A DNA stretch of 64,000 bases, from positions 7,254 to 71,253 of the forward strand of contig JAPPNK010000029.1 in NCBI GenBank assembly GCA_028818695.1, given 5' to 3'. Positions 3,001 through 49,919 of the stretch are shown here, piece by piece. A program made the translations under genes and the position numbers. The first letter of the stretch is position 1. Each line of letters begins with the position of its first letter. The notes under the pieces were generated by a model that was not told the DNA's origin, ran no database searches, and worked only from the letters and a program-made list of their open reading frames with translations. The stretch is from Candidatus Poribacteria bacterium (lineage in GTDB: Bacteria; Poribacteria; WGA-4E; GCA-2687025).

Positions 3001-6000
3001 CGCCCGACGGCCAACGGCGCGAAAAAGAGCCGAACGGCAGTCCCCAAACCGCCCTCTCCCTGCCGCTGAACGCCGAAACTCAGGGCGCCGTATGGGGCAA
3101 ATCCGACGAGGACTGGTTCAGCCTTTCGGTCGATGCGTCGGCGGGCGCAGGAGTTCTCGCGGTATTGGAGGGGGCGCAGACGACGCGGCTTGAGGCGCTG
3201 TCGGAGGAAAACGCGCCGGTCGGCCTCCTGTTGAACGCGCATGCCGTATGGATTTCCGCCGACGCGCGCTCTCTCTACCTGCGCGTCTCCTCCAGTCAGC
3301 CTGAACCGTATCGACTCGCCGCCTACTGGATCGAACGCGCCGACCATGACGGATTCAAGCCGATCGGGCTGGGCGGAACCTTGAGCGCCGCCATGACCGC
3401 CCCGTCCGGATGGAGCGTATCCGCCTTCATAGAAGGAACTGCCGTTCAGTTTCCGCTTCTGGGGGACGGAGCCGGGAATTACGCCGGCTCCTACGAGGTT
3501 CAACAGGGCGATGATGCCGAAAACGCTTCGCTCATCGTGCGCGTTTCGTCCGACTCCCCCGCGCTGCGCTTCGCGGCGGAACGGCCGATGGATCGGCGCG
3601 TTACAATCGACACGAAGCCGCCCGCCATTTTCGGCGCCCGGCACAACGCCGACAAGCCGCTCCGCGCAGGCGAGCGCGTCGACATCTCCGTCCGCTCCGA
3701 GACGGGCGCGGCGGCGTATGCAATTCTCACCGACGGCATTTTTGAAGCGGTCGTTATCCTTACAGAAAACGAAGAGCAGCCAGGGTTATACGAAGGCTCC
3801 TACGAAGCGCGCCCCGGCGACGCCATGACAAACGGAACCGCAACCGCCTATGTGGAGGACGCTGTCGGAAACTTGGCGAGCCGAGAGACGCCCGCCCCGA
3901 TCGACATCGACACGACTCCCCCCGCTGTATACAGCGTTCGGCATGACGCCGACTCGGCTCTTGGGGCAGGGAGCGTTTTGACCGTCGAGGCGGAGGGGGA
4001 ACCAGGCGCCGACGCCCGCTTTCATATCGAAGGCGTCCGAGAAGACGTCCCGATGACGGAGATGGCGGAGGGTTTTTACACAGGCTCCGCGGCGATCTTT
4101 CCAAACGACAACGCGGAGGCCGCCGTCGTCACGGTCGTTCTTGTCGACGCTGCAGGCAATGAAGCGTCGTTGGCGGCTCCGTTCCCCGCAGCCATCGACA
4201 CGGTTCCGCCTCGTATCGACTCTGTATCGCATGACGCCGACCAGCCGCTCGCCAAAGGCGCCCTATTGACGGTTCAACTTCAAGGGGAGCCGGGGGGCAA
4301 GGCGTCCTTCGACATCGGAACGGCAAGGCTCGGCATTCCGATGTTTGACGACGGAGCCGGCGCCGATCTGGAGCCGTTTGACGGGCTGTATGTCGGCGAA
4401 TACGCCGTTCAGGACGCCGATCATCTCATTGATCAAACGGTGACAGGGCGCCTTGAAGACGCGAACGGCAACCGCGCCTCATTGACGGCGGCGCGCCGCG
4501 TTACGCTAGACGCTGTCGCGCCTGCGCCCGTCATGGCTCTGCGCATCGCGGACGCTCCGAACGATCAGGGGAACGTTTTGACCTTGACATGGGAATGGAG
4601 CGGCGACGCGCGCGACATTCACCGATTTTATGTGTACCGCGAAACATATCCGATTCTCAGCGTCCGAGGGCTGATACCTGCGGCGAAGTGGGCGGCGGAA
4701 AGCGGCGGAAGCTCCTACACGCTGGATCTGGACGCGCCCATCAACAACGCGGACTACTACGCCGCGGTCATCGCGGTCGACTCGGCGCGGAACGAGAGCG
4801 CGCTTCTCGCCGGCGAATCGTCCGCCGGACCGGCCGCCGCGGTCGACAATATCCGCCCCGCCGGACCGTCAAACGCCGCCGCCGAGGACGCGCCGAACGA
4901 CCAGGGCGGACGCCTGCTGGCGACATGGACGCCCGGTCCCCCGGAGCCGGACTTTGAGGCGTATGTTCTTTATGTGACGGAGGCTCCGCTTTCCGATCCG
5001 CTTCCGCCTGATCTTCGCCCCGCCGCCGTTGTCGGCGACAGCTCCGCCGCGCAGGCGTTCGTCCCGACGCCCATCAACGCCCCCGGCGAGTCGAATCGGC
5101 AGGGACCGTTCTATGTGACCATTCTGACGCGGGATGTGAACGGGAATCTGTCCCCCGCGCGTCCAGAGCAGGCGGCGGGACCCGTCTATTCAACGGACGA
5201 CATCCCGCCCGAAGCGGTGGCAGGCGTCGCCGCCGAGGACGCGCCGAGCGACAGGGGAGGCATTCTGATTGTCTCGTGGAACGACAACGACGACCCGACG
5301 ATCTACGAATACCGCGTTTATCTGACGAAAAGCCCCGCGCGGAACGGCGCGTCTTTAGAAGGCGTTCAACCTGCGCTCGCGGTTCCGCGCCTGCCGAACG
5401 CGCCGCGTCCATCGGTTGTTGTCGAGACGCCCGCCAACGATGTTCCGTTTTATGTGACGGTCGCCGCCTCGGACGGCTCCGCCGGGCCGCCGGCGGTCGG
5501 CGTCGGCTCCACCGCGGGACCGGTGCGCTCCGTCGTCAACGAGGCGTCAACAGACCGCGCCGTTTTGATACGCGCCGGGTTTGACGCGCGCGCGGCGGCG
5601 CTGATTCCAGCAGGAGCCGCCCCAGAAGGCGCATGGGTCAACATCGTTCAACCTGTCGGCGACTCGCTGCTTCAAGCGATGAAAGAGGCGAACGCGAACC
5701 TCGCCCGCGCCAACATTGACGACGCCTTTGAAGAGGAGTTGCGCGGCACGGCGCGCCTGTTCGTCTCCAACGTCCCGCGCCTATTCCGCCCCGCGACCGT
5801 CACGCTCGGCTTCCCCGCCCTGCCGGTCTCCGGCGACTCTGCGGAGGCGCCGATCATGATCTTCCGTCTGAACGCGGACGCCGTCCCCGCCCGCTGGGAG
5901 CTGCTGTCGGACAAGCAGGAGGCGGACATGTCGGCGGGTACCGTTTCCGCCGAAACGCGCGAGTTTGGGCTTTTCCGCGCCGCGCGTCTAAAGCTGCCCG

Positions 6001-6266
6001 CCTCGTTCGACCGAGTTGTTGTGTATCCGAATCCGTTCCGCTTGGGCGGTTTGCCGCTTCGTTTTGAAAATCTGCCGCGCGGCGCCGAGGTTGCGATCTA
6101 CACGTTGGACGGGCGTCTCGTTCGGCGCCTTGAAAAAAGCCTAGCCGGGGCGGCAGAATGGGACGGCAGAACGCGCGGGGGAGACCTCGCCGCCACGGGC
6201 TTGTATCTATACTCGGCGTCGACAGCGACCGGTCGCCGAGTCGGCCAAATCTTTGTGATACGGTGA
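3..6266 (+). CDS. Giant secreted cell-surface/adhesin-like protein, 5' partial (Ig-like, FN3-like and PPC-type modules, T9SS/FlgD-Ig-like C-terminal tail)
   Basis: One uninterrupted ORF whose frame stays open to the window start. The residues after the TTG at 15 do not look like a signal peptide, so the gene is probably truncated at the 5' end. The translation shows at least 7 Ig-like modules separated by (I/L)D(T/A)xPP linkers. It also shows 5 FN3-like modules (xDAP(N/G/S)D(Q/E/R)GG..L..W...Y(R/E)(V/I)Y...YAAV.A.D.AGN.S) and 3 PPC-type modules (EPN(G/S)(S/T)P....D(E/A)DWF). The final ~85 aa (VVYPNPF...LYLYSAS...IFVIR) resemble a Por secretion tail. Confidence 0.85.
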   Translation, partial: SNGILALSFKGPLSAPASLRLMDRSGSVLTESTGGNLQADLARGEYWIAAESTGAAYEPYALTPFFLYEMRVDADRPARETLPAGAVLRPYLKWRSGGRVWVEIDGIAMPAVPMTDAGGGAYEAALAIPEGAAGKNLRLQARLEMDGAAASVVFPGQFSADGIPPRLDRVWHNASKPLKAGAVLTLRAEGEPNLALEADLTRKDGSLIRGGFLFNQNEMEPGVYEALITVQPHDQTDEGYLRVSAKDAAGNAAVYAIEQPLRIDTVPPRIDSVQASVDGETVRVEARGESGAFGLFSILLPDGPFRTGLPLFEEPAGSGVYVGEYAAAPGEAVENAAARAVLTDAAGNAAEAQTPYDLAFDAAYPFIERLTHNAPAHPMRVGDELSVALEGSPNADAAFSLIDADGETYRGPIPMLETEPGVYTGTYAPADGDLLEDGRVKAELRLSNGKTAERTSERPARLDAEPPSAVLGVSVEDAPGDEGGALLLNWQASAGASRYRIYLSLDPITDISLAEEAERTDSPPALVLTESPGPFYAAVVAEDDAGNLSALRFDEGGSVAGPASPLDNLPPPPVRLSRALDRPGDDGGYLTAAWEASPAPDFLEYRVYLSRTPFDLLKTAAEQSAAAAQLPDRRLTAASVPTPIDGADLYAAVTAVDRAGNESRLALESVVGPTRSVSNPPPVDSGGLRILSGPFGAVHTGSAAFRWSRFADGKPIRGFRFKVDEGAYQYTASNEALLVDLPPGERLFSVEPADGSLPPAVRRFTFDPIQTREREPNSSPAGAQPAPFGAEIAGDLEEGGADWFRFHLSEAGPAGVRLTRRAAGQTRATLFLPFSLAEEDAAAQIFADGGADPHAYASAGLPPGELLVRVDGDPGPYELALSQSRPTPGAVWETEPNGTPLRANAVSGGAVEISGAANLPNDEDWFRWEETDGGERVWTVAAASGQVEFYQEIDGQLELFGELNGTAQTPPSSLAAGAYYIKAVGTGVSPYQIRIEQRPAPDGQRREKEPNGSPQTALSLPLNAETQGAVWGKSDEDWFSLSVDASAGAGVLAVLEGAQTTRLEALSEENAPVGLLLNAHAVWISADARSLYLRVSSSQPEPYRLAAYWIERADHDGFKPIGLGGTLSAAMTAPSGWSVSAFIEGTAVQFPLLGDGAGNYAGSYEVQQGDDAENASLIVRVSSDSPALRFAAERPMDRRVTIDTKPPAIFGARHNADKPLRAGERVDISVRSETGAAAYAILTDGIFEAVVILTENEEQPGLYEGSYEARPGDAMTNGTATAYVEDAVGNLASRETPAPIDIDTTPPAVYSVRHDADSALGAGSVLTVEAEGEPGADARFHIEGVREDVPMTEMAEGFYTGSAAIFPNDNAEAAVVTVVLVDAAGNEASLAAPFPAAIDTVPPRIDSVSHDADQPLAKGALLTVQLQGEPGGKASFDIGTARLGIPMFDDGAGADLEPFDGLYVGEYAVQDADHLIDQTVTGRLEDANGNRASLTAARRVTLDAVAPAPVMALRIADAPNDQGNVLTLTWEWSGDARDIHRFYVYRETYPILSVRGLIPAAKWAAESGGSSYTLDLDAPINNADYYAAVIAVDSARNESALLAGESSAGPAAAVDNIRPAGPSNAAAEDAPNDQGGRLLATWTPGPPEPDFEAYVLYVTEAPLSDPLPPDLRPAAVVGDSSAAQAFVPTPINAPGESNRQGPFYVTILTRDVNGNLSPARPEQAAGPVYSTDDIPPEAVAGVAAEDAPSDRGGILIVSWNDNDDPTIYEYRVYLTKSPARNGASLEGVQPALAVPRLPNAPRPSVVVETPANDVPFYVTVAASDGSAGPPAVGVGSTAGPVRSVVNEASTDRAVLIRAGFDARAAALIPAGAAPEGAWVNIVQPVGDSLLQAMKEANANLARANIDDAFEEELRGTARLFVSNVPRLFRPATVTLGFPALPVSGDSAEAPIMIFRLNADAVPARWELLSDKQEADMSAGTVSAETREFGLFRAARLKLPASFDRVVVYPNPFRLGGLPLRFENLPRGAEVAIYTLDGRLVRRLEKSLAGAAEWDGRTRGGDLAATGLYLYSASTATGRRVGQIFVIR

Positions 6267-6274
6267 GGGAAACG

Positions 6275-7273
6275 ATGCGTTTGTCCGCGCTGGGCGCCTG
6301 CTGCGCAATATGGCTCGCTTTTCCATGCTGGCTCTTGGCGGGCGGCTTGACGGGGCCGGCCGCGCTGAACATGGAGGGAGGGGCGCGCGCCGCCGCGATG
6401 GGCGGAGCGTTCACCGCTGTCGCGGACGACGTCTCGGCGCTGTACTGGAATCCGGCGGGGCTGGGGCAGATTTCGGAGCCGCGTTTTTTGGGAGAGCATC
6501 TGGAGTGGGTCGGCGGGATACGGCGCGAATGGGCGGGGTTCGTCCAGCCTGTTCAAAAAATCGCCAGCGTCGCCGCCGCGGCGTCCATCTTGACCGGCGG
6601 GGATGCGCCGCACACAACGCGCAGCTTAGGCGGTTATGAGGAGATAGGATCGTTTCAGTATTCCTCACGGCATGCGCAGTTTGCCGCGGCGTCGAGGCGG
6701 ATGGGCGATGTGCGCGTCGGCGGTTCGTTAGAGATTTTTCAGCAGGGGCTTGATTTTTCATTGAGCGAGACGGCGGGGTCGTCCGATTTTTCTGAGGCGC
6801 GTTCGGACGGGTATGCGGTTCATCTCGGCGGAATCTGGCATCCGCCGGTTCTTGGGTTGAAGGTCGGGGGAACCGTGCGCGGTTTGGGATCGGACACTCT
6901 TTTTTACGACGATTCGATACCGCTGCCGCGTCAGTTGCGTCTGGGCGCGGCGTATGAACGGCAGATCGAGTCGGCGCCGCCGGAGGAGATACCGATAGAG
7001 CTGGCGGCGGCTCCCGCGCGCGTTTCGAAGGTGGAATTTTTGACGGTTGCGGCGGATGTGTCGTTTGAACGGGGAGCGTCGGCTCGACTGCATGCGGGAG
7101 CGGAATATGTGTTTCAAAACGGCTTTGCGATTCGGGCGGGCTACCGCACCGGCGCGCCGTTGACAGGCGGGTTCGGCTTCGCAGGCAGGTCGTATGAGAT
7201 CGATTACGCCTTCACGCCGGCGGCGGAGCTCGGGAGCGCGCACAGGATTTCGTTCACGCTCCTTTTTCGCTGA
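6275..7273 (+). CDS. PorV/PorQ-like outer-membrane beta-barrel protein
   Basis: ATG at 6275 is 8 nt after the giant gene's stop and follows GGTGAGGGA. Signal peptide MRLSALGACCAIWLAFPCWLLAG. The N-terminal motif GARAAAMGGAFTAVADDVSALYWNPAGLG is typical of PorV/PorQ (also UPF0164/FadL-like) barrels, and the C-terminus has alternating beta-strand character. The ORF-track start at 6158 overlaps the upstream gene, so I trimmed it. Confidence 0.75.
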   Translation: MRLSALGACCAIWLAFPCWLLAGGLTGPAALNMEGGARAAAMGGAFTAVADDVSALYWNPAGLGQISEPRFLGEHLEWVGGIRREWAGFVQPVQKIASVAAAASILTGGDAPHTTRSLGGYEEIGSFQYSSRHAQFAAASRRMGDVRVGGSLEIFQQGLDFSLSETAGSSDFSEARSDGYAVHLGGIWHPPVLGLKVGGTVRGLGSDTLFYDDSIPLPRQLRLGAAYERQIESAPPEEIPIELAAAPARVSKVEFLTVAADVSFERGASARLHAGAEYVFQNGFAIRAGYRTGAPLTGGFGFAGRSYEIDYAFTPAAELGSAHRISFTLLFR

Positions 7274-7793: not shown

Positions 7794-8215
7794 AAGCGTC
7801 GCGGTTTCAACATGAGCGGGATTACGCTACAAAAGTTCTCAACGAGCGGTGGGCATATGATTCAGCTCATCCCGACCACCAAAAATTTGAAGCCGAGCAG
7901 GCAAGAGCTTGGGATAAGCTGCGAGAAACAAGGGAGGCCATCGCTCGTTTTTTTGCGCCGGAAGTGATTTTTGATGCCAACGGAAATTTGGAAACTCTTA
8001 AAGTGATGGAATTGGTCGGCGGCGAGTTTCCTCCAGAATATCTAGAGGGTCGTCAACGCGCGCATGACAGAGAGATGGAGATATTAAAGAAGTTCCTTGT
8101 GCCTACCCATCTCCGATACGGCATGCTTAGTCCCCAAGGATGGGAGCCTTTCACTCCAAGCGAATTGGAAAAGCAGGGCTATAATCTGGAAGATCTGGGC
8201 ATCGATCCAGAATGA
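7763..8215 (+). CDS. Hypothetical protein (150 aa), AT-richer islet
   Basis: ORF with non-artefactual amino-acid composition (rich in K/E/F/Y rather than R/A/P). No motif recognised. Its C-terminal peptide is duplicated in the remnant at 7398-7604. Confidence 0.5.
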   Translation: MGPVWAENRIEASRFQHERDYATKVLNERWAYDSAHPDHQKFEAEQARAWDKLRETREAIARFFAPEVIFDANGNLETLKVMELVGGEFPPEYLEGRQRAHDREMEILKKFLVPTHLRYGMLSPQGWEPFTPSELEKQGYNLEDLGIDPE

Positions 8216-34034: not shown

Positions 34035-35240
34035 ATGAACAACCCTAGACGATTTCCGCCTGTTCCATTCAATCCGGAGGTGTTGCGTTGGGCGCGCGAA
34101 AGCCTAAACCTCTCGTTGGAGGAAGTGGCGCGGCGCATGAAAAAGACTGCCAACGATGTCGAGGCTTGGGAACGCGGGGAGGCGTCCCCTACATATGTTC
34201 AACTTGAGAAGTTGGCGTATAAAATTTACAAGCGTCCGCTCGCGCTCTTTTTCTTTCCTGAGGTACCAGATGAGGAGCCGATTCAGCAGTCGTTCAGAAC
34301 CTTGCCGGAGGCGGAGCTGAAGCGTCTGTCGCCAAGAATGATTGAACTCATGCGGAAGGCGAAAACGCTGCAGATGAATCTTTCGGAGCTCTACAAAGGG
34401 AGGAATCCGTCCGCGCGTCCTATTTGGCGGAGTCTTCGTTTCGGGCGTTCAGACAATCCAGACGACAGGGCAAAAGCGGCGCGAAACGATCTTGGAATTG
34501 ATCTCTCCGAGCAGCAGAGCTGGATGGATAACGACATTGCGCTCAAGCGCTGGAGACGGTCGCTAGAAGAGCGCGGCGTCTTCGTATTCAAAGATTCGTT
34601 CAGATCTCCTGGCAGGAAGTTGGGGGAAGACGCTGAAAGCGGCGAGAGCGTTTTTTCGGGCTTCTGCCTGCACGACGATGAGTTTCCGGTCATCTACGTC
34701 AACAACAACGATGCCAAAACGCGGCAGATATTCACGCTCTTTCATGAGCTGGCGCATCTGTTGATGGGCGTCAACGGGGTACTTCCCGACTACGGCAACA
34801 AGATCGCCTATTCAAACAACGCCGAATGGATTGAGCCGTTGTGCAACCGCTTTGCCGCTGAGTTTCTTGTCCCGGCGCAAGACTTTAAAGCGCGCTCCGA
34901 GGGGCATGCTGTCAATAAAGACAAGGTAGAGAAATGGGCTGCGTTATACAGCGTCAGCCGCGAGACGATCCTGCGCCGCTTACTTGATTGGGGTCGCGTA
35001 AGCCCGCAAGATTACGCTCAACAATCGCGGATATGGATAAATCAAAAGAAAAAAAGCGGGAAAGGCGGCTCATATTATAACAATATCATTGCATATCTAG
35101 GAGAGCGGTATATTGAGACCGTTTTCGATCGGTATGATGACGGGGCTATTTCTATGGAAGAAACCGCAGATTATTTGAATCTGAAGGCGTCCCAAATTGT
35201 TGCATTAGAAGAAAAGATAGCGGACAGAAGCAGAGGCTAG
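34035..35240 (+). CDS. XRE-type HTH fused to ImmA/IrrE (COG2856, DUF955) zinc metallopeptidase
   Basis: The N-terminal HTH is LNLSLEEVARRMKKTANDVEAWERGEASPTYVQLEKLA. An HExxH motif lies within FTLFHELAHLLMG. The gene is AT-richer than its flanks. Confidence 0.85.
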   Translation: MNNPRRFPPVPFNPEVLRWARESLNLSLEEVARRMKKTANDVEAWERGEASPTYVQLEKLAYKIYKRPLALFFFPEVPDEEPIQQSFRTLPEAELKRLSPRMIELMRKAKTLQMNLSELYKGRNPSARPIWRSLRFGRSDNPDDRAKAARNDLGIDLSEQQSWMDNDIALKRWRRSLEERGVFVFKDSFRSPGRKLGEDAESGESVFSGFCLHDDEFPVIYVNNNDAKTRQIFTLFHELAHLLMGVNGVLPDYGNKIAYSNNAEWIEPLCNRFAAEFLVPAQDFKARSEGHAVNKDKVEKWAALYSVSRETILRRLLDWGRVSPQDYAQQSRIWINQKKKSGKGGSYYNNIIAYLGERYIETVFDRYDDGAISMEETADYLNLKASQIVALEEKIADRSRG

Positions 35241-35242
35241 AC

Positions 35243-35731
35243 TTGACCGTTTATGTTTTTGATACCGGCCTGTTCATTACCTTCTTCAGTTACTATTATC
35301 CAAACATATTCCCTTCTCTCTGGGAACGCTTTAATGAAACGTTAGCGAGAGGCCGCATAACCTCGACGCGCGAGGTGTTCAACGAGCTGGGAAGACATGG
35401 CGATTCCGATATGGACTGGTGTCGAGAGCATAAGGAACTATTTCCAACGCCAACCGTTAGCGAGGGCGCATTCGTCAGTGAAATTTTCAAAGTTTCGCGT
35501 TTTAAGGAGATGGTGACCAAAAAGAATGTCATTGACGGCAGACCAATCGCAGATCCATTCGTCATTGCGCGGGCAAAACATCTCTCTGACAGAGGAATAT
35601 CTTCTTGCGTCGTTACAACTGAAAAGAAAAGGACGCCGACCGGGTCTAAAATTCCGAATGTATGCGAACATTTCGGTATAGACTGCGTAAACCCAGAAGG
35701 CTTTATGGAGCGCGAAAACTGGCGTTTCTGA
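35243..35731 (+). CDS. DUF4411-family PIN-like putative nuclease
   Basis: A TTG start lies 2 nt after the ImmA stop and follows GCAGAGG. YVFDTG..., FPSLWERF, STREVFNEL, IADPFVIARA, VVTTEKK and KIPNVCEHFGI match my recollection of the DUF4411 pattern, including conserved acidic residues of a PIN-like fold. Confidence 0.75.
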   Translation: MTVYVFDTGLFITFFSYYYPNIFPSLWERFNETLARGRITSTREVFNELGRHGDSDMDWCREHKELFPTPTVSEGAFVSEIFKVSRFKEMVTKKNVIDGRPIADPFVIARAKHLSDRGISSCVVTTEKKRTPTGSKIPNVCEHFGIDCVNPEGFMERENWRF

Positions 35732-42680: not shown

Positions 42681-43604
42681 ATGCGGAGCAAAACAGGCGC
42701 CTATCTGGAGCTGATACGGTACCCGCTGCTGGCGATACCGATTGCGGCGTCGCTGCCGGGGATCGTTCTGGCGGCGGCGGAGGTCGGAATCAATTGGCGC
42801 GTCTTTGCGGCGCCGGCGACGGCGCTGTGCGGCTATTTCGCCGGTATGATCAAGAACGACTACTTCCACCGCGAACATGACCGCGCCGCGAACCCCGACC
42901 GACCGCTTCCCTCCGGACGCGCCCGCCCCAAGACGGCGCATCGACTCGCCTCCGGGATGTATATCGCGTGCGTCCTGAGCGGCTTTGCGATGGGCTGGCG
43001 CGCCGGGCTGCTGACGATGTGCCTCGTCGCCGTGTCGCATTCGTATAACGCCTATCTGAAAATGCGCGGCGTCTGGGGCAGCGTTGCGCTTCCGTTCGGC
43101 ATCGCGCTGTTGAGCGTGTACGGGTCGGTGTGCGTGTCGGGGGGCGTCTCGCCGGGCGTCTGGTTCTGCTTTGCGACCATTTTTTTATACGACGCGGGCG
43201 TTCATATTATCAGCGCGTTTAAAGACATGGAGCGGGACAAAGCGCTGGGCGTTGTGACGACGCCGCTGCAGATTGGAGCGCGGCGCGCGATGGCTGTTTC
43301 GTGGATCTTGACGGCGGGGGCGTTTGCGGCCGCATTGACGTTCGCGCTGCGCGTCGGGTCGGCGGCGCAGGGGGCATGCGTCGGTTTGGCGTTTGCGGTC
43401 GCGGTTTGGACGCGGCTGCCGCTCCTGCGCGAGGCGTCGGAGAAGAACGGGTATGCGGCGCTCAAAGGCTCCATGATCGGGGCGGCGCTGCTGTTTCCGT
43501 CGCCGATTGCGGGCGTCCTGCCGTTCTGGTGGGCGGCGGGGACGGTCGCTGCGCTGGCAGGGCTGACAGCGGTTCTGCTGGGGCGCAGCCGTCAGGAGGT
43601 GTGA
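42681..43604 (+). CDS. UbiA-superfamily prenyltransferase
   Basis: Multi-TM protein. The first Asp-rich motif region is NDYFHREHDRAANPDRPLPSG, where His replaces the second canonical Asp of NDxxDxxxD. The second motif is KDMERDKALGVVTTP. Confidence 0.8.
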   Translation: MRSKTGAYLELIRYPLLAIPIAASLPGIVLAAAEVGINWRVFAAPATALCGYFAGMIKNDYFHREHDRAANPDRPLPSGRARPKTAHRLASGMYIACVLSGFAMGWRAGLLTMCLVAVSHSYNAYLKMRGVWGSVALPFGIALLSVYGSVCVSGGVSPGVWFCFATIFLYDAGVHIISAFKDMERDKALGVVTTPLQIGARRAMAVSWILTAGAFAAALTFALRVGSAAQGACVGLAFAVAVWTRLPLLREASEKNGYAALKGSMIGAALLFPSPIAGVLPFWWAAGTVAALAGLTAVLLGRSRQEV

Positions 43605-43620: not shown

Positions 43621-44172
43621 TCACTTTTCAAAGCGGACGGCAAGCCCGGCAACGGTCGGCGCGGCGCGCATCAAACAGACCGCCACCGCAACATAGGCGA
43701 AAGCCCGCCCCGCAGAGACCATCTCCAGCGCAAGAAAAGAGACCGCCAAAGCCTTGACGAGACCGTACCCGCCGCGGCTCCATACAGGATCGCATAGCGC
43801 GCGGCTCCATTCTGAATGAGAATGTTTGCGAAAGAGACCGGTTCCCAATGTGCGTATTATGACAACGCCAGCGACCCAGAACGGCAGCGCGCCTTTAATG
43901 CCGAAATATATCCAGAATGTCCACTCAACGGCGCGGTCGGTTAACACATCTAGGCGCGCTCCATACGAAGAAGTCTCGCCAGAACAACGAGCGGCTTTCC
44001 CGTCCAGCGCGTCCGATAGAAACATGAGCGCGATCAACACAGCGGCGGCGATGCGCATCTCCAACTCCAGCAGCCAAACAGCGAACGGAATCGCCGCCAT
44101 GCGAAACAATGTCAGCGCATTCGCGGTCGCGCGCCCATGACGCTCCATCCAAGAGGAAAAGCGCGCTTTCAT
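43621..44172 (-). CDS. CDP-alcohol phosphatidyltransferase family protein
   Basis: DALDGKAARCSGETSSYGARLDVLTD matches D-x2-DG-x2-AR...G-x3-D-x3-D. The protein has 4-5 TM segments. Confidence 0.8.
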   Translation of the reverse strand: MKARFSSWMERHGRATANALTLFRMAAIPFAVWLLELEMRIAAAVLIALMFLSDALDGKAARCSGETSSYGARLDVLTDRAVEWTFWIYFGIKGALPFWVAGVVIIRTLGTGLFRKHSHSEWSRALCDPVWSRGGYGLVKALAVSFLALEMVSAGRAFAYVAVAVCLMRAAPTVAGLAVRFEK

Positions 44173-44176
44173 ACGC

Positions 44177-46198
44177 TCATTCCCCTCCCATCCAGACGCG
44201 CCGCAGCTCTGGGTCTGGGAAGTCGGGGGCCGTCCATGCTTCGTAGAGTTCCGGCGGCACGGTCAGATCCGGCGGATAATGGATGCGGAATATCTTCGCT
44301 TCCTCGTTCTCGAAGACCAGCTCAAACGCCTCGGAGCCGCCCTGTTCCCACATGCGCCGGGAAAAACCGATGCTGCGGTCGATCTCCGCCCCCGAACCTA
44401 ACCATTCTATGCGTTGCGCAGGTCCGTCGATCAGGTCGCGGAGCTGGAGAAACCAATAGTCCGCGTTGCGCGTTTTCAGGAACTGCAGCGCTTCCGTCTC
44501 GCTTTCAGCGCAATACAGATGACGCGCCGAAAGATAGATCCAGTAATGCTTCCATAGATCTTGATCTTCAATAGTCCGCGCGTTCGCATGGACATTCAGC
44601 TGGCTGCCGACGCCCCAGCGCGCCGCCACAATAGGACGGTCCTCGTTGCCGCTTGACGCATGTTCGCCTATCCAGCGGTACGCCTCTAAGGTTTTTTGTG
44701 TCGGCCTTGAAAACCGCAAAGCGGCGGCCTCAGCGGCTTGCGGCGCGATTCTTCCCGCCGGACCCCAGTATAATATCGCCATCGGTATGAGCGTCACATA
44801 CAGATACCGCAAAGCCTCTCTCGCGGCGAATCTGTATTTCTTGGGTTCCTTACCGTCCGGCTTCGTTTCATCTTCGCTCTCTATCGAGCGGGAAGGAGTC
44901 TTCTGTTGAATCGCGCGTCCTATCCAAACGAGAAAGACAGCGCTCACTGCCGCAATGGCGGGCGCCAGCATGACAGCGTATCGTACCGAGCCTGTTGTCA
45001 GATACCCCCAGATGCCGACCCACCCCGCCGCGAACAGGGAGGTCTCCATGGACGCGCTGATGTCAAGCCGCCGCGCATAAAGATACAACAGGCGAAGCCA
45101 CGAGCCGACAACGCCCAGCGCCGCGATGATTGGCAGACCGCTAAAATGTACCTTCCATCCCTCTGCGTCCATATCGCGCAGCTCCCCTACAGATTGCATG
45201 AGGCGGCTGTCGCTGAACGGAACGGCGAACGCGGCGGCTGCCTCACCAGATAACAGCGCGCGTTGAATCAGAAAGCCGACCAGAAGCAAGGCGGGCAGAA
45301 ACGACGCCAATTTCAGACCGATATGCTGACGCCCCCGCAACGTCTGTCGGACGAAGACAAGCGACGCAGCAAGCAGCGGGGGAAATGCCGCTATCAAACC
45401 GACAGGATGCGCAGGCTCCGTTGGAACAACCCAAAAGCGGTGCGATGAAGAGAAGACGAAGAGCGGGAGCGTCAAACAAGCGCAGAAAACATAAAACTCT
45501 AAGATACGCTCCTTTTGACGCCATGCGCTCACCGATGCGGGTATCAGAACGCAGAGAGCGAATGTGCCAAACCCCTCCCATGCGAGGCAGCCGACGCATG
45601 CCGTGAAACCGCATGCCGCCGCCAGTGCTATGCGGCTTCGCCGTTTTGACGCATGGATCTGCCAAAGATACAGCGAGCCCGTCAGGACCGCGAGAAAAAG
45701 GCAAAAGGCGTCCCTGTCCGCAAAGCCGAGAGGGGTACGAGACGCAACAGGCGGAGACAATACAAAAAACAGGCTGCCTAAACCTGCAGATTCCCAACCG
45801 TATAGGGATAAGAGGGCCGCTGTGAACAGCGCAGCTGTCATCGCAAAGAGGACAGGAGGCGCGTAGCAACTAAACTTGTGAAGCGTCAGGTCTGGAACAA
45901 AGACTCGCGCTGCGAGGTAGGAGTAAGCGATAACGTAGGAATACAGGTTATGAAGGAGCGTTTGATCGCGGCCCATCGGTTGCCAACGCTCCATATCGCG
46001 CTTCGGCAATCGCCCCTCTTCAAGGATGCGCTCCGATTGGCGGTAATAGAGGTAGGCGTCGTTGCCGGTAAAGCGTCCGTCCAACGCTTCGTAGTTAACG
46101 CGCGTCCGGTGCCACAAGCTGAACGCAAAGGACGCGACCATTGCGACGACAAGCAACGCGACTCTGCGTTGACGCCGGGAGTCTTCTCGTTCATTCAT
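44177..46198 (-). CDS. GT-C fold membrane glycosyltransferase, STT3/PglB/AglB-like (oligosaccharyltransferase-like)
   Basis: At least 11 TM helices followed by a soluble C-terminal domain. The first-loop segment GNDAYLYYRQ resembles the OST acidic loop. ARWGVGSQLNVHANARTIEDQD resembles the WWDYG...DGG region. The assignment rests on motif resemblance only. I set the start at ATG 46198. Confidence 0.6.
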   Translation of the reverse strand: MNEREDSRRQRRVALLVVAMVASFAFSLWHRTRVNYEALDGRFTGNDAYLYYRQSERILEEGRLPKRDMERWQPMGRDQTLLHNLYSYVIAYSYLAARVFVPDLTLHKFSCYAPPVLFAMTAALFTAALLSLYGWESAGLGSLFFVLSPPVASRTPLGFADRDAFCLFLAVLTGSLYLWQIHASKRRSRIALAAACGFTACVGCLAWEGFGTFALCVLIPASVSAWRQKERILEFYVFCACLTLPLFVFSSSHRFWVVPTEPAHPVGLIAAFPPLLAASLVFVRQTLRGRQHIGLKLASFLPALLLVGFLIQRALLSGEAAAAFAVPFSDSRLMQSVGELRDMDAEGWKVHFSGLPIIAALGVVGSWLRLLYLYARRLDISASMETSLFAAGWVGIWGYLTTGSVRYAVMLAPAIAAVSAVFLVWIGRAIQQKTPSRSIESEDETKPDGKEPKKYRFAAREALRYLYVTLIPMAILYWGPAGRIAPQAAEAAALRFSRPTQKTLEAYRWIGEHASSGNEDRPIVAARWGVGSQLNVHANARTIEDQDLWKHYWIYLSARHLYCAESETEALQFLKTRNADYWFLQLRDLIDGPAQRIEWLGSGAEIDRSIGFSRRMWEQGGSEAFELVFENEEAKIFRIHYPPDLTVPPELYEAWTAPDFPDPELRRVWMGGE

Positions 46199-46337
46199 TC
46201 GTTGCCACGGGCGACGCAGGCACCTGCGCCTCGCGTATCTCCAAAAAGATTCGTTGAGAGGCAATCAACGCTGTCAGCATCAGCAGAACCAACGCAACGG
46301 CGCGGAAGAAAACGATAAGTTGACGATCCATCAGATT

Positions 46338-47645
46338 TTACTGGTGCGGCTCCTCTGAGAAAGGAGGCGCGCCTTGGCTGCGACGAAGACGACGCTGTTG
46401 CTCCATTTCTTGCCAACGGAGAAACGCTTCTCGGCGCTCTTTTAGCGCATTCCGCTCAGATTCAGTTAGATTCTTATCGTTCATAGCGCGTTTCATCTCT
46501 TCTAGAAGCTGATTGAGTTCTTCTTCAGAAGGCGGTCTGAAAAGATGCGTTTCTGAAAGCGATGGCTTTTCTAGACTTTCTGGTCCCTCGTCTAGACTTT
46601 CTGGTCCCTCGTACGAATCATCCAGCGAAAAACTACCATCATCTCCCGCTATTTTGGGCAACGGCGTTTGAGGTACCGCTAGCGGAGAGTCGGCAGCGAT
46701 CGAAGCATATTGCTTACGCGAAGCGTCGCTTCGTTCAGCCCAAACTTCATTGATGACGCTAACAGCGTCTTCACATTTCATCCAATCAATGGGACTCATT
46801 TCATAATGAGGTGTCCAGCTCGCTATCGTTTCGACCATATGCGCCAGCTGCTCATCGCTAAATTTTCTAAACGCATCCATTCTCGCGCCATGAAGCGTAG
46901 GGCGTTTGTCGGGCGACAGCCGTTCGCCATCCTCTCCAATGTAAATGACGTTGATGCCCTCTGGGAAAACTCCTCGAAACAGAAGCTCGTATTCTTCTTC
47001 GGGCGTAAGCTCACGCTCACCGTCAACGCTATACAATGCCTCCGATGTGTAGGAGAATCCGCCGCTTGGATGCTTCTTTATTTTTGAAAAGCGTACATGG
47101 ATAGCTGGCTCCAACGTTCTCCATGCATTGAGCTCGCTATCCCAGGTTTTTTTAGGACCGATGCTAAGCTGTGAGATGTCGCCGGACTTTAACATCTCTC
47201 GAAGTTGAGTGAGAACCATGTCTCTGTTTATAATAGAGGCGTTAGGGAGCTCCGCGATTGGGGCACCGCGGTATTTCTCATAGCCTTCCCTAAGCATTTT
47301 TGCAAGGCTTTCGTTGTCTTCCTCACCATGCGCGCGTAGGTAAGTGTCAATGTGATAATCCACATGTTTTTCCCATCTGTCTTGGACAGAGATTCCTCGG
47401 GACTCTTCATGGGGATCATTGGTTTGCGCTTCCGTCAAAGATTCCTCGTTAGGAGAGGGAGAGTCGCCCGACGCAACAACAATTTCTGTCGGGGAATAAT
47501 CAAGTTCAGACTCGCCAGACTCTTTTCTTATACTCTCCTCCATCGAGGTTTCTGATGTTGACAGGACGTTCCAATAAACTGCGACTGCTACAGTCACCGA
47601 TGTCAGAACAATGGCGCAAATCCAGGCGATCGATTTTTTATTCAT
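46338..47645 (-). CDS. Orphan membrane-anchored protein (435 aa), AT-rich, coiled-coil C-terminus
   Basis: The ATG follows AGGGAGAAAG. The N-terminal anchor is IAWICAIVLTSVTVAVAVYW. The composition is protein-like and rich in E/K/S. I recognised no domain. Confidence 0.65.
   Translation of the reverse strand: MNKKSIAWICAIVLTSVTVAVAVYWNVLSTSETSMEESIRKESGESELDYSPTEIVVASGDSPSPNEESLTEAQTNDPHEESRGISVQDRWEKHVDYHIDTYLRAHGEEDNESLAKMLREGYEKYRGAPIAELPNASIINRDMVLTQLREMLKSGDISQLSIGPKKTWDSELNAWRTLEPAIHVRFSKIKKHPSGGFSYTSEALYSVDGERELTPEEEYELLFRGVFPEGINVIYIGEDGERLSPDKRPTLHGARMDAFRKFSDEQLAHMVETIASWTPHYEMSPIDWMKCEDAVSVINEVWAERSDASRKQYASIAADSPLAVPQTPLPKIAGDDGSFSLDDSYEGPESLDEGPESLEKPSLSETHLFRPPSEEELNQLLEEMKRAMNDKNLTESERNALKERREAFLRWQEMEQQRRLRRSQGAPPFSEEPHQ
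46570..46611. repeat. Perfect 21-bp tandem duplication inside the 435-aa gene
   Basis: TCTAGACTTTCTGGTCCCTCG occurs twice back to back. It is in frame and duplicates a 7-aa unit (within ...EGPESLDEGPESLEK...). Confidence 0.9.
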
Positions 47646-47673
47646 TCGTTCTTTCTCCCTTGCGTTGGAATCA

Positions 47674-48498
47674 TCAAGGATTCAATTTCCATATTGCAGT
47701 CACGTCTTCATCCCCACATGTAACATGGAAGTCGCCAGCATCAGTAATATGCGCATGAGCATAACTCATTCCCCTTTCAACTAGTTTCATTATGCAAGGA
47801 CACACTGGTACCTCTGCAACTGCCTTTAGAGATTCCTTGTAGCCTTGGCGCTCCTTCAGGGTTAGAGTAATTTCATAGGCTTTTACCTTCTTCCTTCCTT
47901 TTTTGATATGAGTTTGGTTGATTGATTCCGTCGAAAACATACCTTCAATAGAGTCAAGAAATTCACCTGCGATTTCAACAGCAGTTGCAACACCCACTAC
48001 TAGACCGCTTTCGTCCCATTCCTCTTCAGTAATTGTCAGTTTAATAGGAGTTTCATTATGCTGAAACCCAATAAGAACGCTTCCATTCTTATTATCCGTG
48101 TCACGAGAAGGATGATCAGGTTTATCGACGTTATCATAGAAACCGAACCCTGCATATGCATTTACATGACCAGCCCCATGAAAAGATTCTTCATCACCGT
48201 TACCAAACCCACCTGCCCACGGGCTTCTTCCATTGAGGTAGGGAGTGATCTCAGCTCTGGCATAACCAGGTGAGGCGACAACAGTGGTACTCAAATATGG
48301 CTCCGCATCAATTGCGCAATCATTGTGAATTCCAGGTCCTGCCAACAGCATTGAGCCTTCAATTGCGTCATCAACCATCCAAAGCGAGAGACCGAAGCCC
48401 CCGACAGCGAGCGCCATCATGAGCGCAGTCGGGATGTTCAGGAAGGGCTTGACTCGTCCAGCAAGTTTCGTCGTCAGGGCGTTCAGTGTTCGTCGCAT
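47674..48498 (-). CDS. Orphan membrane-anchored protein (274 aa), AT-rich
   Basis: ATG 48498 follows GGAGAAA and lies downstream of the predicted sigma-54 start site. An alternative GTG start lies at 48528. The N-terminal anchor is IPTALMMALAVGGFGLSLWMV. I recognised no domain. This is the most AT-rich gene in the window by eye. Confidence 0.6.
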   Translation of the reverse strand: MRRTLNALTTKLAGRVKPFLNIPTALMMALAVGGFGLSLWMVDDAIEGSMLLAGPGIHNDCAIDAEPYLSTTVVASPGYARAEITPYLNGRSPWAGGFGNGDEESFHGAGHVNAYAGFGFYDNVDKPDHPSRDTDNKNGSVLIGFQHNETPIKLTITEEEWDESGLVVGVATAVEIAGEFLDSIEGMFSTESINQTHIKKGRKKVKAYEITLTLKERQGYKESLKAVAEVPVCPCIMKLVERGMSYAHAHITDAGDFHVTCGDEDVTAIWKLNP

Positions 48499-48552
48499 CC
48501 GTTTCTCCGTTTCATTTTGTTCCGCCACATCATTGCGACACGCCTCCCTTAA

Positions 48553-48568
48553 AGCAAATACGGCGCCA
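48553..48568 (-). promoter_or_regulatory. Sigma-54 (-24/-12) promoter
   Basis: The minus strand reads TGGCGC-CGTAT-TTGCT, against the consensus TGGCAC-N5-TTGCW, with exact GG-N10-GC spacing. It lies ~55 nt upstream of ATG 48498 and directly downstream of a sigma-54 activator gene. Confidence 0.6.
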
Positions 48569-48622
48569 ACTTTGAAAACCTAGCAACCGTGCGGGTTCTC
48601 CCCAAAACCGCCCAACCAATCC

Positions 48623-48681
48623 TCGACCATATAGTCGAATTATTCGACCAAAACGTCGAAAAAAGTCGACTATATGGTCGA
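48623..48681. promoter_or_regulatory. Three phased TCGAC-N6-GTCGA dyads (putative enhancer/UAS for the adjacent activator)
   Basis: TCGACCATATAGTCGA (48623-48638), TCGACCAAAACGTCGA (48644-48659) and TCGACTATATGGTCGA (48666-48681). Start-to-start spacing is 21 and 22 bp. Sites 1 and 3 are exact reverse complements. The sites lie 55-113 bp upstream of the -24 element. Confidence 0.55.
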
Positions 48682-49716
48682 TTAGGACGTCTCATCGGTT
48701 GAATTGCCATCGAAACCAATCTTGTATTTTTTAAGTTTATACCGCAGCCCTCGTTCAGTGATGCCAAGCTGCTTCGCCGCGCGCGACTGGACGCCCTTTG
48801 CGGCGCGCAGCGCCTGCACAATCATCGTCCGCTCCACCCGTTCCAATGCGTCGGGTAGGCTCACCTGCGCGTCGCCCTCTTCGTTCCGGTCCGCCGATTG
48901 AGAAGGGGGGGTCCCGTCGCTGTAGCCGCTCGGCGTCATCTCTTTCGGCAAATGCTCTGGGTGAACGACGCCGCCCGCCGCATATATCGACGCGTTGCTA
49001 ATCGCATTCTTCAGCTCCCGCACATTTCCAGGGTACTCGTACATGAAAAGGATCGACATCGCCTCCTGCGAAAATTGAACCGGCTTGCCGCCTTCGGCAT
49101 ACTTTTCTGCAAACGCCTCGATCAGCAGCGGGAGATCCTTGCGCCGTTTCCGCAGCGGCGGAATCCTGAACGCAACCGCTTTCAGTCTCTGGTACAGATC
49201 TTCCCGAAAAGCGTCCTTCTTAATTTCCTCGGGAAGGTTCTTATTGGTCGCCGAGATGATTCGCGCGCTGATAGGGATCGGTTTTCCAGCTCCTCCAATC
49301 CGTTCAATCGTCCGTTCTTGCAGCGCGCGCAGCAGCTTCTTTTGAACCTCCGGCGACGCGTCCCCGATCTCATCTAAAAAGAGCGTTCCGTTCTGCGCCC
49401 TCTCAAACAGTCCGATGCGCTTCTGATTCGCCCCGGTGAACGAGCCGCGCTCATGGCCGAACAGCTGGCTCTCAATGAGCGACTCCGGTATCGCGGCGCA
49501 GCTCACGGCGACATACGGACAGTTGCTGCGATGCGACTTCTGATGAATCCACTTCGCCAGCATGCTTTTTCCTGTGCCGGTTTGCCCGTATAGAAAGATG
49601 CTGACATCCCTTTTGGCGGCGCGTTCCAGCCGTCTGAGTACATCCAGCATGGGGCGCGAGACGGCAATGAATTTGTCTTTGTCCTCGGAAGCGTTCTGTG
49701 TTTCTTGTTCTGGCAA
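48682..49716 (-). CDS. Sigma-54-dependent transcriptional activator (bEBP) lacking an N-terminal sensor domain
   Basis: The AAA+ core starts ~20 aa from the N-terminus. Walker A is GQTGTGKS and Walker B is LFLDEIGD. The sigma-54 contact loop is GSFTGA, a variant of GAFTGA. The C-terminal Fis-type HTH is SRAAKQLGITERGLRYKLKKY. Confidence 0.9.
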   Translation of the reverse strand: MPEQETQNASEDKDKFIAVSRPMLDVLRRLERAAKRDVSIFLYGQTGTGKSMLAKWIHQKSHRSNCPYVAVSCAAIPESLIESQLFGHERGSFTGANQKRIGLFERAQNGTLFLDEIGDASPEVQKKLLRALQERTIERIGGAGKPIPISARIISATNKNLPEEIKKDAFREDLYQRLKAVAFRIPPLRKRRKDLPLLIEAFAEKYAEGGKPVQFSQEAMSILFMYEYPGNVRELKNAISNASIYAAGGVVHPEHLPKEMTPSGYSDGTPPSQSADRNEEGDAQVSLPDALERVERTMIVQALRAAKGVQSRAAKQLGITERGLRYKLKKYKIGFDGNSTDETS

Positions 49717-49919
49717 GATCGCCTGCCTTTCTTTTGCGATAGCTCTTTACCATTCTGCCTTCATGATCGGCTGAGCGCTACAAATAATGCCGCATTCTTT
49801 TCAGCGGCGCAACCTTCATTCTCTGACGGACGGCGCGGCGTCTTTTTTATGAATGCGGGCAGGCTATGGGGCTGCAGGAATGACTGCGCTGGGCGGCGGA
49901 AGCCTAGCGCCATGCCTCG

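Follow-up and report, generated by a model that had tools for sequence, protein, structure and literature searches.

A predicted sigma-54-controlled envelope operon of Poribacteria in which regulator and cargo genes assort independently

The DNA analysed here, referred to as the window, is a 64 kb stretch that corresponds to scaffold_23 (350 kb) of ENA record ERZ23495468 and belongs to Poribacteria, a lineage of sponge symbionts. On its minus strand, the gene for a predicted sigma-54 activator without a sensory domain is followed by three inverted-repeat dyads, a predicted sigma-54 promoter and two genes, here termed A and B, that encode proteins with a single membrane anchor; behind these lie a gene for a 46-residue protein, a gene for an STT3-like glycosyltransferase and a gene for a CDP-alcohol phosphatidyltransferase (Table 1). 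All of the sequence features of the activator, the dyads, the promoter and genes A and B that had been described in an initial annotation of this DNA were recovered at their positions. Comparison with related loci suggests that the locus is a lineage-restricted Poribacteria envelope operon assembled from three independently recombining parts, and we consider this reading, together with the activator/sigma-54 mechanism and the function of A and B proposed below, to be on balance probable.

Table 1. Positions of the predicted features of the locus in the window and the basis of each assignment.
Feature	Position	Strand	Basis
Sensor-less sigma-54 enhancer-binding protein, 344 residues	48682..49716	-	Pfam domains; about 17 residues, AAA+ core, lid, Fis-type helix-turn-helix
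Putative upstream activating sequence, three TCGAC-N6-GTCGA dyads	48623-48638, 48644-48659, 48666-48681		Motif count and conservation
39-nt block GTTTTGGGGAGAACCCGCACGGTTGCTAGGTTTTCAAAG in the interval between dyads and promoter	48570..48608	-	Near-invariant in six aligned loci
Predicted sigma-54 promoter TGGCGC-N5-TTGCT (TGGCGCCGTATTTGCT)	48553..48568	-	Conservation; sole exact match in the window
Gene A anchor MRRTLNALTTKLAGRVKPFLNIPTALMMALAVGGFGLSLWMVDD, 22-residue basic cytoplasmic tail and membrane helix	48367..48498	-	Conservation, hydropathy
Gene A hypervariable outer domain, 230 residues	47674..48366	-	No DNA homology to L014 or L013; GC content at third codon positions 0.33
Gene B, 435 residues	46338..47645	-	Membrane helix, acidic Ser/Glu-rich linker, helical domain, charged C-terminal helices
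Single-helix protein of 46 residues, overlooked initially, MDRQLIVFFRAVALVLLMLTALIASQRIFLEIREAQVPASPVATNE	46191..46331	-	Open reading frame read from the sequence; called in L013 and L014
STT3-like GT-C glycosyltransferase, 673 residues, degenerate WWDYG motif (RWGVG)	44177..46198	-	Pfam STT3, E 2e-12
CDP-alcohol phosphatidyltransferase, 183 residues, last gene of the putative operon	43621..44172	-	Pfam CDP-OH_P_transf, E 1.3e-19

The A-family loci compared with the window are labelled L001 to L023. The order regulator, A, B, (46-residue gene), STT3-like gene and CDP-alcohol transferase gene is held in nine loci, namely the window, L001, L003, L013, L014, L015, L017, L018 and L022, of which L003 is on the Poribacteria chromosome OY762492.1 (3.95 Mb), and four different versions (L013, L014, L017 and L022) occur together in the single assembly ERZ25069412. 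On long-read contigs of this assembly, the genes for RarA, a sigma factor and the activator are split into two to three open reading frames (L013 2514-3908, L017 1654-2466 and L022 105-1068); these calls are read as indel errors and probably do not represent pseudogenes, since the corresponding genes of L018 and L014 are intact, coverage is low and the gene for RarA is also fragmented in L013. In a set of 5.8 billion clustered proteins, 11 relatives of protein A were found, and an exhaustive profile search of 1.84 billion representatives returned only 18 members of its family; among the GTDB representative genomes the family is present in OY762492.1 only, and no further copies were found in scans of JGI metagenomes. 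The window itself contains no second copy of the A anchor, no paralogue of the A and B cargo and no additional protein with a GAFTGA loop. Within the one library searched, the literature held nothing on this locus, on sigma-54 in Poribacteria or on STT3 proteins in Poribacteria.

The activator comprises an AAA+ core (Pfam Sigma54_activat, PF00158; residues 18-182, E 5.6e-63), a lid (AAA_lid_14, residues 189-264) and a C-terminal helix-turn-helix (HTH) domain of the Fis type (HTH_8, residues 291-331, E 2.8e-15). No Pfam domain was found on the N-terminal side of residue 18, and the reading frame cannot be extended upstream because the list of open reading frames begins each frame directly after a stop codon, which bears out the short N-terminus without an input domain that the initial annotation had described. 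The Walker A motif GQTGTGKS, the sequence LFLDEIGD and the sigma-54-contacting loop GSFTGA are all present, as is the annotated Fis-type HTH; the loop reads GSFTGA in the window and L014, SSFTGA in L001 and GAFTGA in L003 and L015, and GSFTGA and SSFTGA are tolerated variants of the GAFTGA loop. The orthologues are 58-94% identical, and all five that were aligned are equally short. The activator scores below the cut-off of every NCBIfam equivalog model, including TIGR02915 (293 bits versus 503), and its scores against the two PspF models, TIGR02974 (254 bits versus 443.55) and PRK11608 (227 versus 529), rule out that it is a PspF orthologue. Bacterial enhancer-binding proteins (bEBPs) bind upstream dyads and remodel the sigma-54 holoenzyme, and sensor-less members such as PspF and HrpR/S are controlled in trans by partner proteins. 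With PspF and HrpR/S the present system shares an AAA+ core with a C-terminal Fis-type HTH and no N-terminal input domain, an activator gene that adjoins its presumed target promoter, dyads 80-130 bp upstream and an envelope-related target operon. In contrast to these systems, the locus contains no PspA/IM30 or HrpV-like partner, the match to the PspF model is far below its threshold (254 versus 443 bits), the putative targets are hypervariable and the activator is interchangeable with an extracytoplasmic function (ECF) sigma factor in conspecific strains.

The window contains exactly three matches to TCGAC-N6-GTCGA, where 0.14 would be expected and where three or more were found in none of 100 shuffled sequences. 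They are the three dyads of the initial annotation (48623, 48644 and 48666), of which the first and the third are indeed exact reverse complements; the dyad nearest the activator begins 1 nt past the stop codon of the activator gene, and, measured from the predicted start site, the dyad centres lie about 88, 109 and 131 bp upstream. L014, L015, L003 and L022 retain the dyads and L002 retains two of the three, and across the loci the TCGAC half-sites are fixed and the six-base spacers vary but stay symmetrical (CATATG and GGTACC in L015). In L001, the position of the dyads (7975-8017) holds a GC-rich 17-4-17 palindrome, CGGCGGAATCGGCGGCA-TAAT-TGCCGCCGATTCCGCCG, which might act as a different binding site or else form a terminator hairpin, and the first HTH helix of the L001 activator reads VLFRAAIR rather than VQSRAAKQ. 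The 39-nt block between the dyads and the promoter is near-invariant even where the activator genes share only 73-79% DNA identity, and it may be a putative aid to DNA bending or looping or a site for a second factor.

The promoter lies about 55 bp downstream of the dyads and 55 bp before ATG 48498, which opens gene A. The GG-N10-GC spacing that had been proposed for it is present, with flanks that resemble TGGCAC-N5-TTGCW, and in an alignment of the spacer between activator and A the GG and GC dinucleotides are invariant in six of six loci; the element occurs at every locus of the sigma-54 type that was fetched, and L022 shows the same arrangement of dyads, block and promoter. The promoter is taken as real on the grounds of this conservation and not of the rarity of the motif. 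From the usual spacing to the -12 element, transcription is predicted to start near 48541-48543. The annotated ribosome-binding site was also found, with GGAG 7 nt ahead of ATG 48498, and both types of leader that precede gene A in different loci support this ATG. The leader and first codons gave no match in Rfam, and an RNA element in the leader was rejected since RNAalifold returned -9.6 kcal/mol with essentially no covariation for ten copies. Activator, dyads and -24/-12 promoter recur as a unit in seven related Poribacteria loci, a point on which the initial annotation had made its proposal depend, and it is well supported by this conservation that they form a regulatory unit and not a chance assembly. 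A regulatory mechanism of the bEBP type at the locus is thus regarded, from sequence, as highly probable.

Gene A encodes a protein of 274 residues with a single N-terminal hydrophobic helix (residues about 22-43), for which hydropathy, charge distribution and the positive-inside rule predict an N-in/C-out topology. Its relatives share just the first ~45 residues, MRRTLNALTTKLAGRVKPFLNIPTALMMALAVGGFGLSLWMVEDSM, with 75-96% identity, and diverge completely beyond this point. The anchor (44 residues) is 90-96% identical across loci with unrelated outer domains, no other protein segment of the locus is as well conserved as its cytoplasmic tail, and the outer domains fall into at least 12 unrelated types in about 20 family members (phmmer grouping). 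In comparisons with the remote copy in L002, the anchor codons show 7-9 synonymous and 2-4 non-synonymous differences, and other pairs are roughly balanced. Protein A gave no match in Pfam, NCBIfam, PHROGs and PADLOC or in sequence and profile searches of the PDB, and 12 relatives of the A family gave no match in Pfam. In unrelated outer domains, an A-H-N tripeptide recurs 10-15 residues past the helix (alignment A1; P0017-P0024), and alternating x-A-x-A-x stretches that end in D-x-x-G and C-termini rich in His and aromatic residues are also seen; these weak motifs may stem from a beta-rich scaffold common to these domains or from a processing site. Both L003 (8001-8300) and L015 (6001-6300) have a sigma-54 promoter followed by an incomplete first anchor, which continues in frame into a leader of the ECF type and an entire gene A, so that gene callers give one long protein with the motif twice (P0002 and P0011); these double anchors look like scars of recombination between leaders of the sigma-54 type and the ECF type.

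Protein B likewise has a single N-terminal hydrophobic helix (residues about 4-30), so that the one N-terminal anchor ascribed to each of the two proteins is confirmed. A word-seeded search with B alone found no homologue; a profile of eight sequences found at least three extra proteins among the matches listed, and partners drawn from the loci are 25-36% identical to B (E 3e-16 to 1e-6). The B proteins form two subfamilies with a common architecture (pairwise E 1e-6 to 1e-19), the second of which is paired with three unrelated types of A. Most loci have a B-like gene behind the A-like one; in L009 and L023 the downstream partner has no homology to the B family. B gave no match in Pfam, NCBIfam, PHROGs, PADLOC or sequence and profile searches of the PDB, and eight relatives of the B family gave none in Pfam, in agreement with the initial description of both A and B as orphans. 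Within gene B, a perfect 21-nt tandem duplication at 46570-46611 encodes EGPESLD twice in a low-complexity region.

The outer domain of A and the whole of B behave as one replaceable piece. Between 54000 and 48367 (codon 44 of A), the window and L014 share 97.1% identity; from 48367 to 46313 they do not align, and from 46313, inside the 46-residue gene, they align again with 91.6% identity; homology returns at 46337 in the comparison with L013 and at 46313 in that with L003. At the protein level, the activators of the window and L014 are 94% and the CDP-alcohol transferases 98% identical, whereas the outer domains of A are unrelated and the B proteins are 27% identical. The edges of the replaced segment are thus sharp, and it is very likely that the cargo (outer domain of A and all of B, 48366-46338) constitutes an exchangeable cassette. 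Its composition follows the same borders: the GC content at third codon positions (GC3) is 0.68 in the activator gene and in the A anchor and 0.47 in B, and it is 0.60 in the 46-residue gene and 0.65 in both the STT3-like and the transferase genes. Gene A is therefore a compositional chimera, in which GC3 drops from 0.68 to 0.33 inside the gene. In other loci the cassette has a GC content of 0.46-0.54 versus 0.57-0.62 in the flanks, and the kilobase of the window with the lowest GC content (47001-48000; 0.461 versus 0.596 overall) contains parts of both A and B, which had been singled out as the most AT-rich genes. Of the horizontal acquisition that the initial annotation had suggested for the entire module, the part that concerns the outer domain of A and B is in keeping with their foreign composition; it does not hold for the activator, the first 44 codons of A and the downstream genes, the composition of which is native (0.60-0.68). 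Homologous recombination is inferred as the simplest mechanism of cassette exchange. The cassette is flanked only by short repeats at chance level, for which reason dedicated recombination sites or repeats at its edges were rejected, and no integrase, recombinase or transposase was seen in the locus tables.

On the other side of the A anchor, the regulator is replaced in the same manner. Identity between L013 and the window is 98.4% down to position 49825, below which only 48485-48371, in the A anchor, aligns (96.5%). Where the window has the activator gene, dyads and sigma-54 promoter, L013 has an ECF sigma factor gene, and L018 shows the same swap with an intact sigma factor of 202 residues; the protein contains Sigma70_r2 and r4_2 domains and scores 66.5 bits against TIGR02937 (cut-off 42.9). 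In L013 and L018, the sigma factor gene and A are each preceded by GCAACGTTTATGCGGCTCAATCGTATAACGTT, a motif of the ECF form AAC-N16-CGT. Judged from these sequences, the regulator has been swapped in other strains for a putatively autoregulated ECF sigma factor and its promoter, and the regulator module of the window extends over about 49825-48486. The A anchor, which is equally conserved behind the ECF sigma factor, remains homologous where the modules on both sides of it are replaced. In L013 and L018, no anti-sigma domain was found in A with Pfam, and there is no other anti-sigma gene nearby. L022, with an activator, and L018, with an ECF sigma factor, carry the same type of cargo (A 56% and B 76% identical); regulator and cargo thus assort independently.

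Both types of promoter recur as copies at satellite genes. L002, which is located on a different scaffold in the ENA record of the window, has no activator; it retains the last ~90 nt of the activator gene, together with two dyads, block, promoter and leader, and carries another A-B pair. A promoter without its own activator points to a second target in trans, where the assignment of both scaffolds to one genome rests on the shared ENA record, and the activator appears to have at least two targets, with the second promoter derived by segmental copying. The satellites L008 and L009 of OY762492.1 have the ECF motif and a stub of the 5' end of the sigma factor gene in front of A-family genes; a sigma factor of the L018 type was not found on OY762492.1 by an exact-pattern method. 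Directly downstream of the satellite A-B-C cluster in L008, two paralogous proteins of 450 residues (3748-5100 and 5531-6880) each join an ECF sigma factor (regions 2 and 4) to a membrane helix and an outer part of about 270 residues, with 32% identity to the ECF sigma factor of L018. The upstream motif of these fusions differs, and they are probably unrelated regulators.

The initial annotation placed two genes behind the promoter; five tightly packed genes in conserved order are found instead, including the 46-residue gene that it had missed. The latter begins 6 nt past the stop codon of B and overlaps the start of the STT3-like gene, and its copies in L013 and L014 are 80% identical to each other. 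With intergenic gaps of 28, 6, -8 and 4 nt from A to the CDP-alcohol transferase gene, a five-gene operon that is transcribed from the sigma-54 promoter is likely.

The STT3-like protein matches TIGR04154 with E 1e-15 (57 bits versus a cut-off of 450), and a profile of six orthologues matches the C-terminal domain of the solved yeast Stt3 structure over a span that includes WWDYG and T-x-x-D-x-x-x-W (E 2.3e-4). In the six orthologues, D47 and D161-x-D163 are invariant, as are D-A/P-Y-L-Y-Y-R of the first loop and G-F-x-D-x-D; by inspection, D47 and D161-x-D163 are assigned to the catalytic motifs of GT-C enzymes. The WWDYG position reads RW[G/D/S/L][V/A/S]G, with RWGVG in the window and RWDAG, RWSVG and GWLSG in orthologues. 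The WWD residues of PglB and AglB are those that bind the +2 Ser/Thr of a sequon, and the present enzyme is probably an STT3 relative that does not read N-X-S/T. It thus resembles STT3, AglB and PglB in its multi-pass N-terminal domain, the acidic motif of its first loop and a C-terminal domain that can be aligned to yeast Stt3, but the sequon-reading Asp is not conserved, the gene is paired with that of a CDP-alcohol phosphatidyltransferase and the locus has no glycan genes of the pgl or agl type. The translationally coupled single-helix mini-protein would, by analogy, recall eukaryotic Ost4 (36 residues). The best NCBIfam match of the STT3-like protein is an archaeosortase-associated STT3 model. 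The CDP-alcohol transferase is 75-98% identical across loci, with archaetidylinositol-phosphate synthase as its best NCBIfam match. Beyond it, a UbiA-family prenyltransferase is encoded at 42681-43604 on the plus strand, for which the top NCBIfam match is a generic prenyltransferase and the second a geranylgeranylglycerol-phosphate geranylgeranyltransferase; the gene is found in L013 and L014 and not in L001, L003 and L015. The NCBIfam matches of all three proteins are far below the cut-offs. Scans of OY762492.1 found one STT3-like locus and three A-family loci, a ratio that is circumstantially consistent with one enzyme that serves several clients.

Taken together, the locus may operate as follows. 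By analogy with known bEBPs, three activator dimers would occupy the three dyads, two helical turns apart, and would nucleate an ATPase hexamer ring by which the sigma-54 closed complex about 90-130 bp downstream is remodelled and opened, possibly with help in looping from the invariant 39-nt block. The transcript would run through A, B, the mini-protein gene, the STT3-like gene and the CDP-alcohol phosphatidyltransferase gene. Exchange of the cargo would use the DNA that encodes the A anchor as one arm and the 46-residue and STT3-like genes as the other. The mini-protein and the STT3-like enzyme, as conserved membrane machinery, could dock on the tail and helix of A, the CDP-alcohol transferase would supply a lipid-linked donor or a lipid, and the machinery would then act on the variable outer domains, either to modify or to deploy them. 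Topology, synteny and variability tentatively suggest that A and B are a strain-specific, on-demand N-in/C-out envelope pair with the A anchor as the handle for the machinery, a possibility that we consider less likely than not. The on-demand envelope reading fits the focus of sigma-54 regulons on the cell exterior, the building of which is an enriched function among their genes (PMC3162934). A more specific version, in which the N-terminal tail and helix are a tag that marks clients of a sorting or modification system made up of the STT3-like enzyme, its Ost4-like mini-subunit and the CDP-alcohol transferase, in which the pairs are determinants of identity, host interaction or phage evasion among the densely packed symbionts of sponges and in which the operon has been rewired between sigma-54 and ECF control, the two main bacterial systems for transcription on demand, is speculative and rather unlikely.

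Several observations weigh against parts of this reading. On the regulatory side, L001 has no TCGAC dyads despite the same promoter and block and an activator that is 86% identical; the promoter motif by itself is at chance level, both as the loose pattern (1.26 matches expected) and with one mismatch allowed (seven matches in the window versus 6.0 expected); and no RpoN-box motif was found in the six-frame translation of the window, where rpoN had been named as a prerequisite. The five-gene transcript is deduced from tight gene spacing, the sole basis on which the STT3-like genes would be co-transcribed, and in L001, L003 and L015 the gap between the called B and STT3-like genes is 175-293 nt, most of which the 141-nt mini-gene would fill if it is present there. 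Without the WWD residues in the STT3-like enzyme, ordinary N-glycosylation of A and B is unlikely, and a physical link between the A anchor and this enzyme is a candidate pairing suggested by gene context. Anchored in the inner membrane, A and B would be periplasmic proteins of a diderm cell and would not necessarily reach the cell surface. Lastly, AlphaFold2 gave a mean predicted local distance difference test score of 41.4 for A and 42.7 for B, with confidence in the membrane helices only, which makes these models unusable.

The architecture of the cargo parallels that of polymorphic toxins, and A and B might be a toxin-immunity cassette in which the N-terminus of A serves trafficking, its C-terminus is an antibacterial toxin and B is a periplasmic membrane-anchored immunity protein, with recombination as in CdiA-CT/CdiI and Rhs-CT/RhsI. 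The sharp junction between conserved and variable parts inside A, the replacement of the next gene along with its distal part, the low GC content of the cassette, the many unrelated C-terminal domains behind a single N-terminus, the membrane-anchored partner gene after the A-like gene in every locus examined and the several variants in one sample, a form of strain polymorphism, are all as in those systems. However, searches of Pfam, NCBIfam, PADLOC and PHROGs matched no member to a toxin or an immunity family, none of the loci contains a secretion-system gene or an orphan array of C-terminal or immunity genes, and A is a bitopic protein of 230-330 residues with no counterpart of the long delivery region that known polymorphic toxins have. 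B exceeds A in size, consists mostly of an acidic linker and helices, and remains homologous where the A domains are unrelated; that its second subfamily occurs with three types of A would be unexpected of a specific immunity protein. We therefore consider the toxin-immunity explanation improbable. Alternatively, A and B may be fast-decaying or selfish passengers at a recombination hotspot, the promoter of which serves the mini-protein, STT3-like and CDP-alcohol transferase genes. This would account for the conservation of only the downstream genes and the regulator, the lack of recognisable domains in A and B and their atypical composition, yet all of the A and B copies examined are intact reading frames of 200-630 residues in AT-richer DNA, where stop codons should be frequent, and the synonymous excess in the L002 comparisons points to purifying selection on the A anchor. 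Satellite A-B pairs moreover have their own promoter copies away from the STT3-like gene, and the same type of cargo, with B 76% identical, is kept under two regulators, which makes the passenger explanation very unlikely.

The same comparisons bear on the suggestion of the initial annotation that A or B controls the activator in trans in the manner of PspA, or more generally that one of them is a membrane sensor or anti-activator of the PspA/PspF or HrpV/HrpS kind, with the outer domain as signal input. An activator without an input domain would lead one to expect some trans control, the topology of A is like that of anti-sigma factors, and its cytoplasmic tail is, as noted, the best conserved part; in L013 and L018, A stands directly after the ECF sigma factor gene, in the position of an anti-sigma gene, and as in autoregulated ECF operons the motif precedes both the sigma factor gene and the next gene, which encodes a single-pass N-in protein. 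Known anti-sigma and anti-activator domains and PspA are far longer than the cytoplasmic part of A, which has only about 22 residues, and neither an anti-sigma domain nor, in Pfam and NCBIfam, PspA/IM30 is recognisable in the proteins; in sister strains the family is driven by sigma-54. Retention of the same anchor and cargo type under an ECF sigma factor argues against PspA-like feedback by A or B, since specific inhibition of both an AAA+ activator and an ECF sigma factor by one tail is unlikely. Activators that are 94% identical occur with unrelated outer domains of A and with B proteins that are 27% identical, which fits a payload better than a sensor, and satellite copies have no regulator gene. 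The suggestion is accordingly disfavoured, and control of the activator by A or B has a low probability, similar to that of the passenger explanation. The preferred reading remains that of an envelope operon with exchangeable regulator and cargo.

Three other known systems can be compared with this operon. PEP-CTERM/exosortase systems with PrsK/PrsR likewise have unrelated envelope proteins that share one short tag (a motif, a helix and basic residues), a single dedicated membrane enzyme nearby and a dedicated sigma-54 activator. Here, the tag is N-terminal and of another sequence, no exosortase is present and the candidate enzyme is an STT3-like GT-C protein; unlike PrsR, the activator has no receiver domain (TIGR02915, 293 versus 503 bits), and the family is tiny, with 18 representatives. 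In Mycoplasma Vsa/Vlp, a conserved promoter, leader and N-terminal anchor also precede alternative outer domains, but here no site-specific recombinase, invertible element or silent-cassette array was seen, the variation is between strains and the anchor is a transmembrane helix and not a lipoprotein signal. With Myxococcus TraA/TraB, the locus shares a polymorphic two-protein unit.

The loci constitute a natural experiment, in which conspecific strains with flanks that are 97-98% identical, some from the same sample, drive one operon by sigma-54 or by an ECF sigma factor, and the promoter copies with stubs of regulator genes at the satellites offer a direct view of how targets are recruited to a regulon. 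The conserved N-terminal anchor, carried by at least 12 unrelated domains and linked by gene context to an unusual STT3-like enzyme, is a candidate recognition tag, and if this enzyme acts on A or B it would be a bacterial STT3 relative with a specificity other than the sequon. The cassette is likewise a candidate source of strain-level diversity at the surface or in the periplasm, towards phage, host or kin, in uncultivated sponge symbionts. The device is a variation on known kinds, with a modest chance that a new sorting or modification system is encoded; if the locus is merely a hypervariable accessory islet, it still provides a fully specified pair of sigma-54 promoter and activator for an uncultivated phylum.

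Elsewhere in the window, the kilobase with the second-lowest GC content (0.494) contains a gene pair on the plus strand (34035-35731), in which a 401-residue protein with HTH_3 and Peptidase_M78 domains (ImmA/IrrE-like) adjoins a 162-residue DUF4411 protein, and which looks like an accessory two-gene module.

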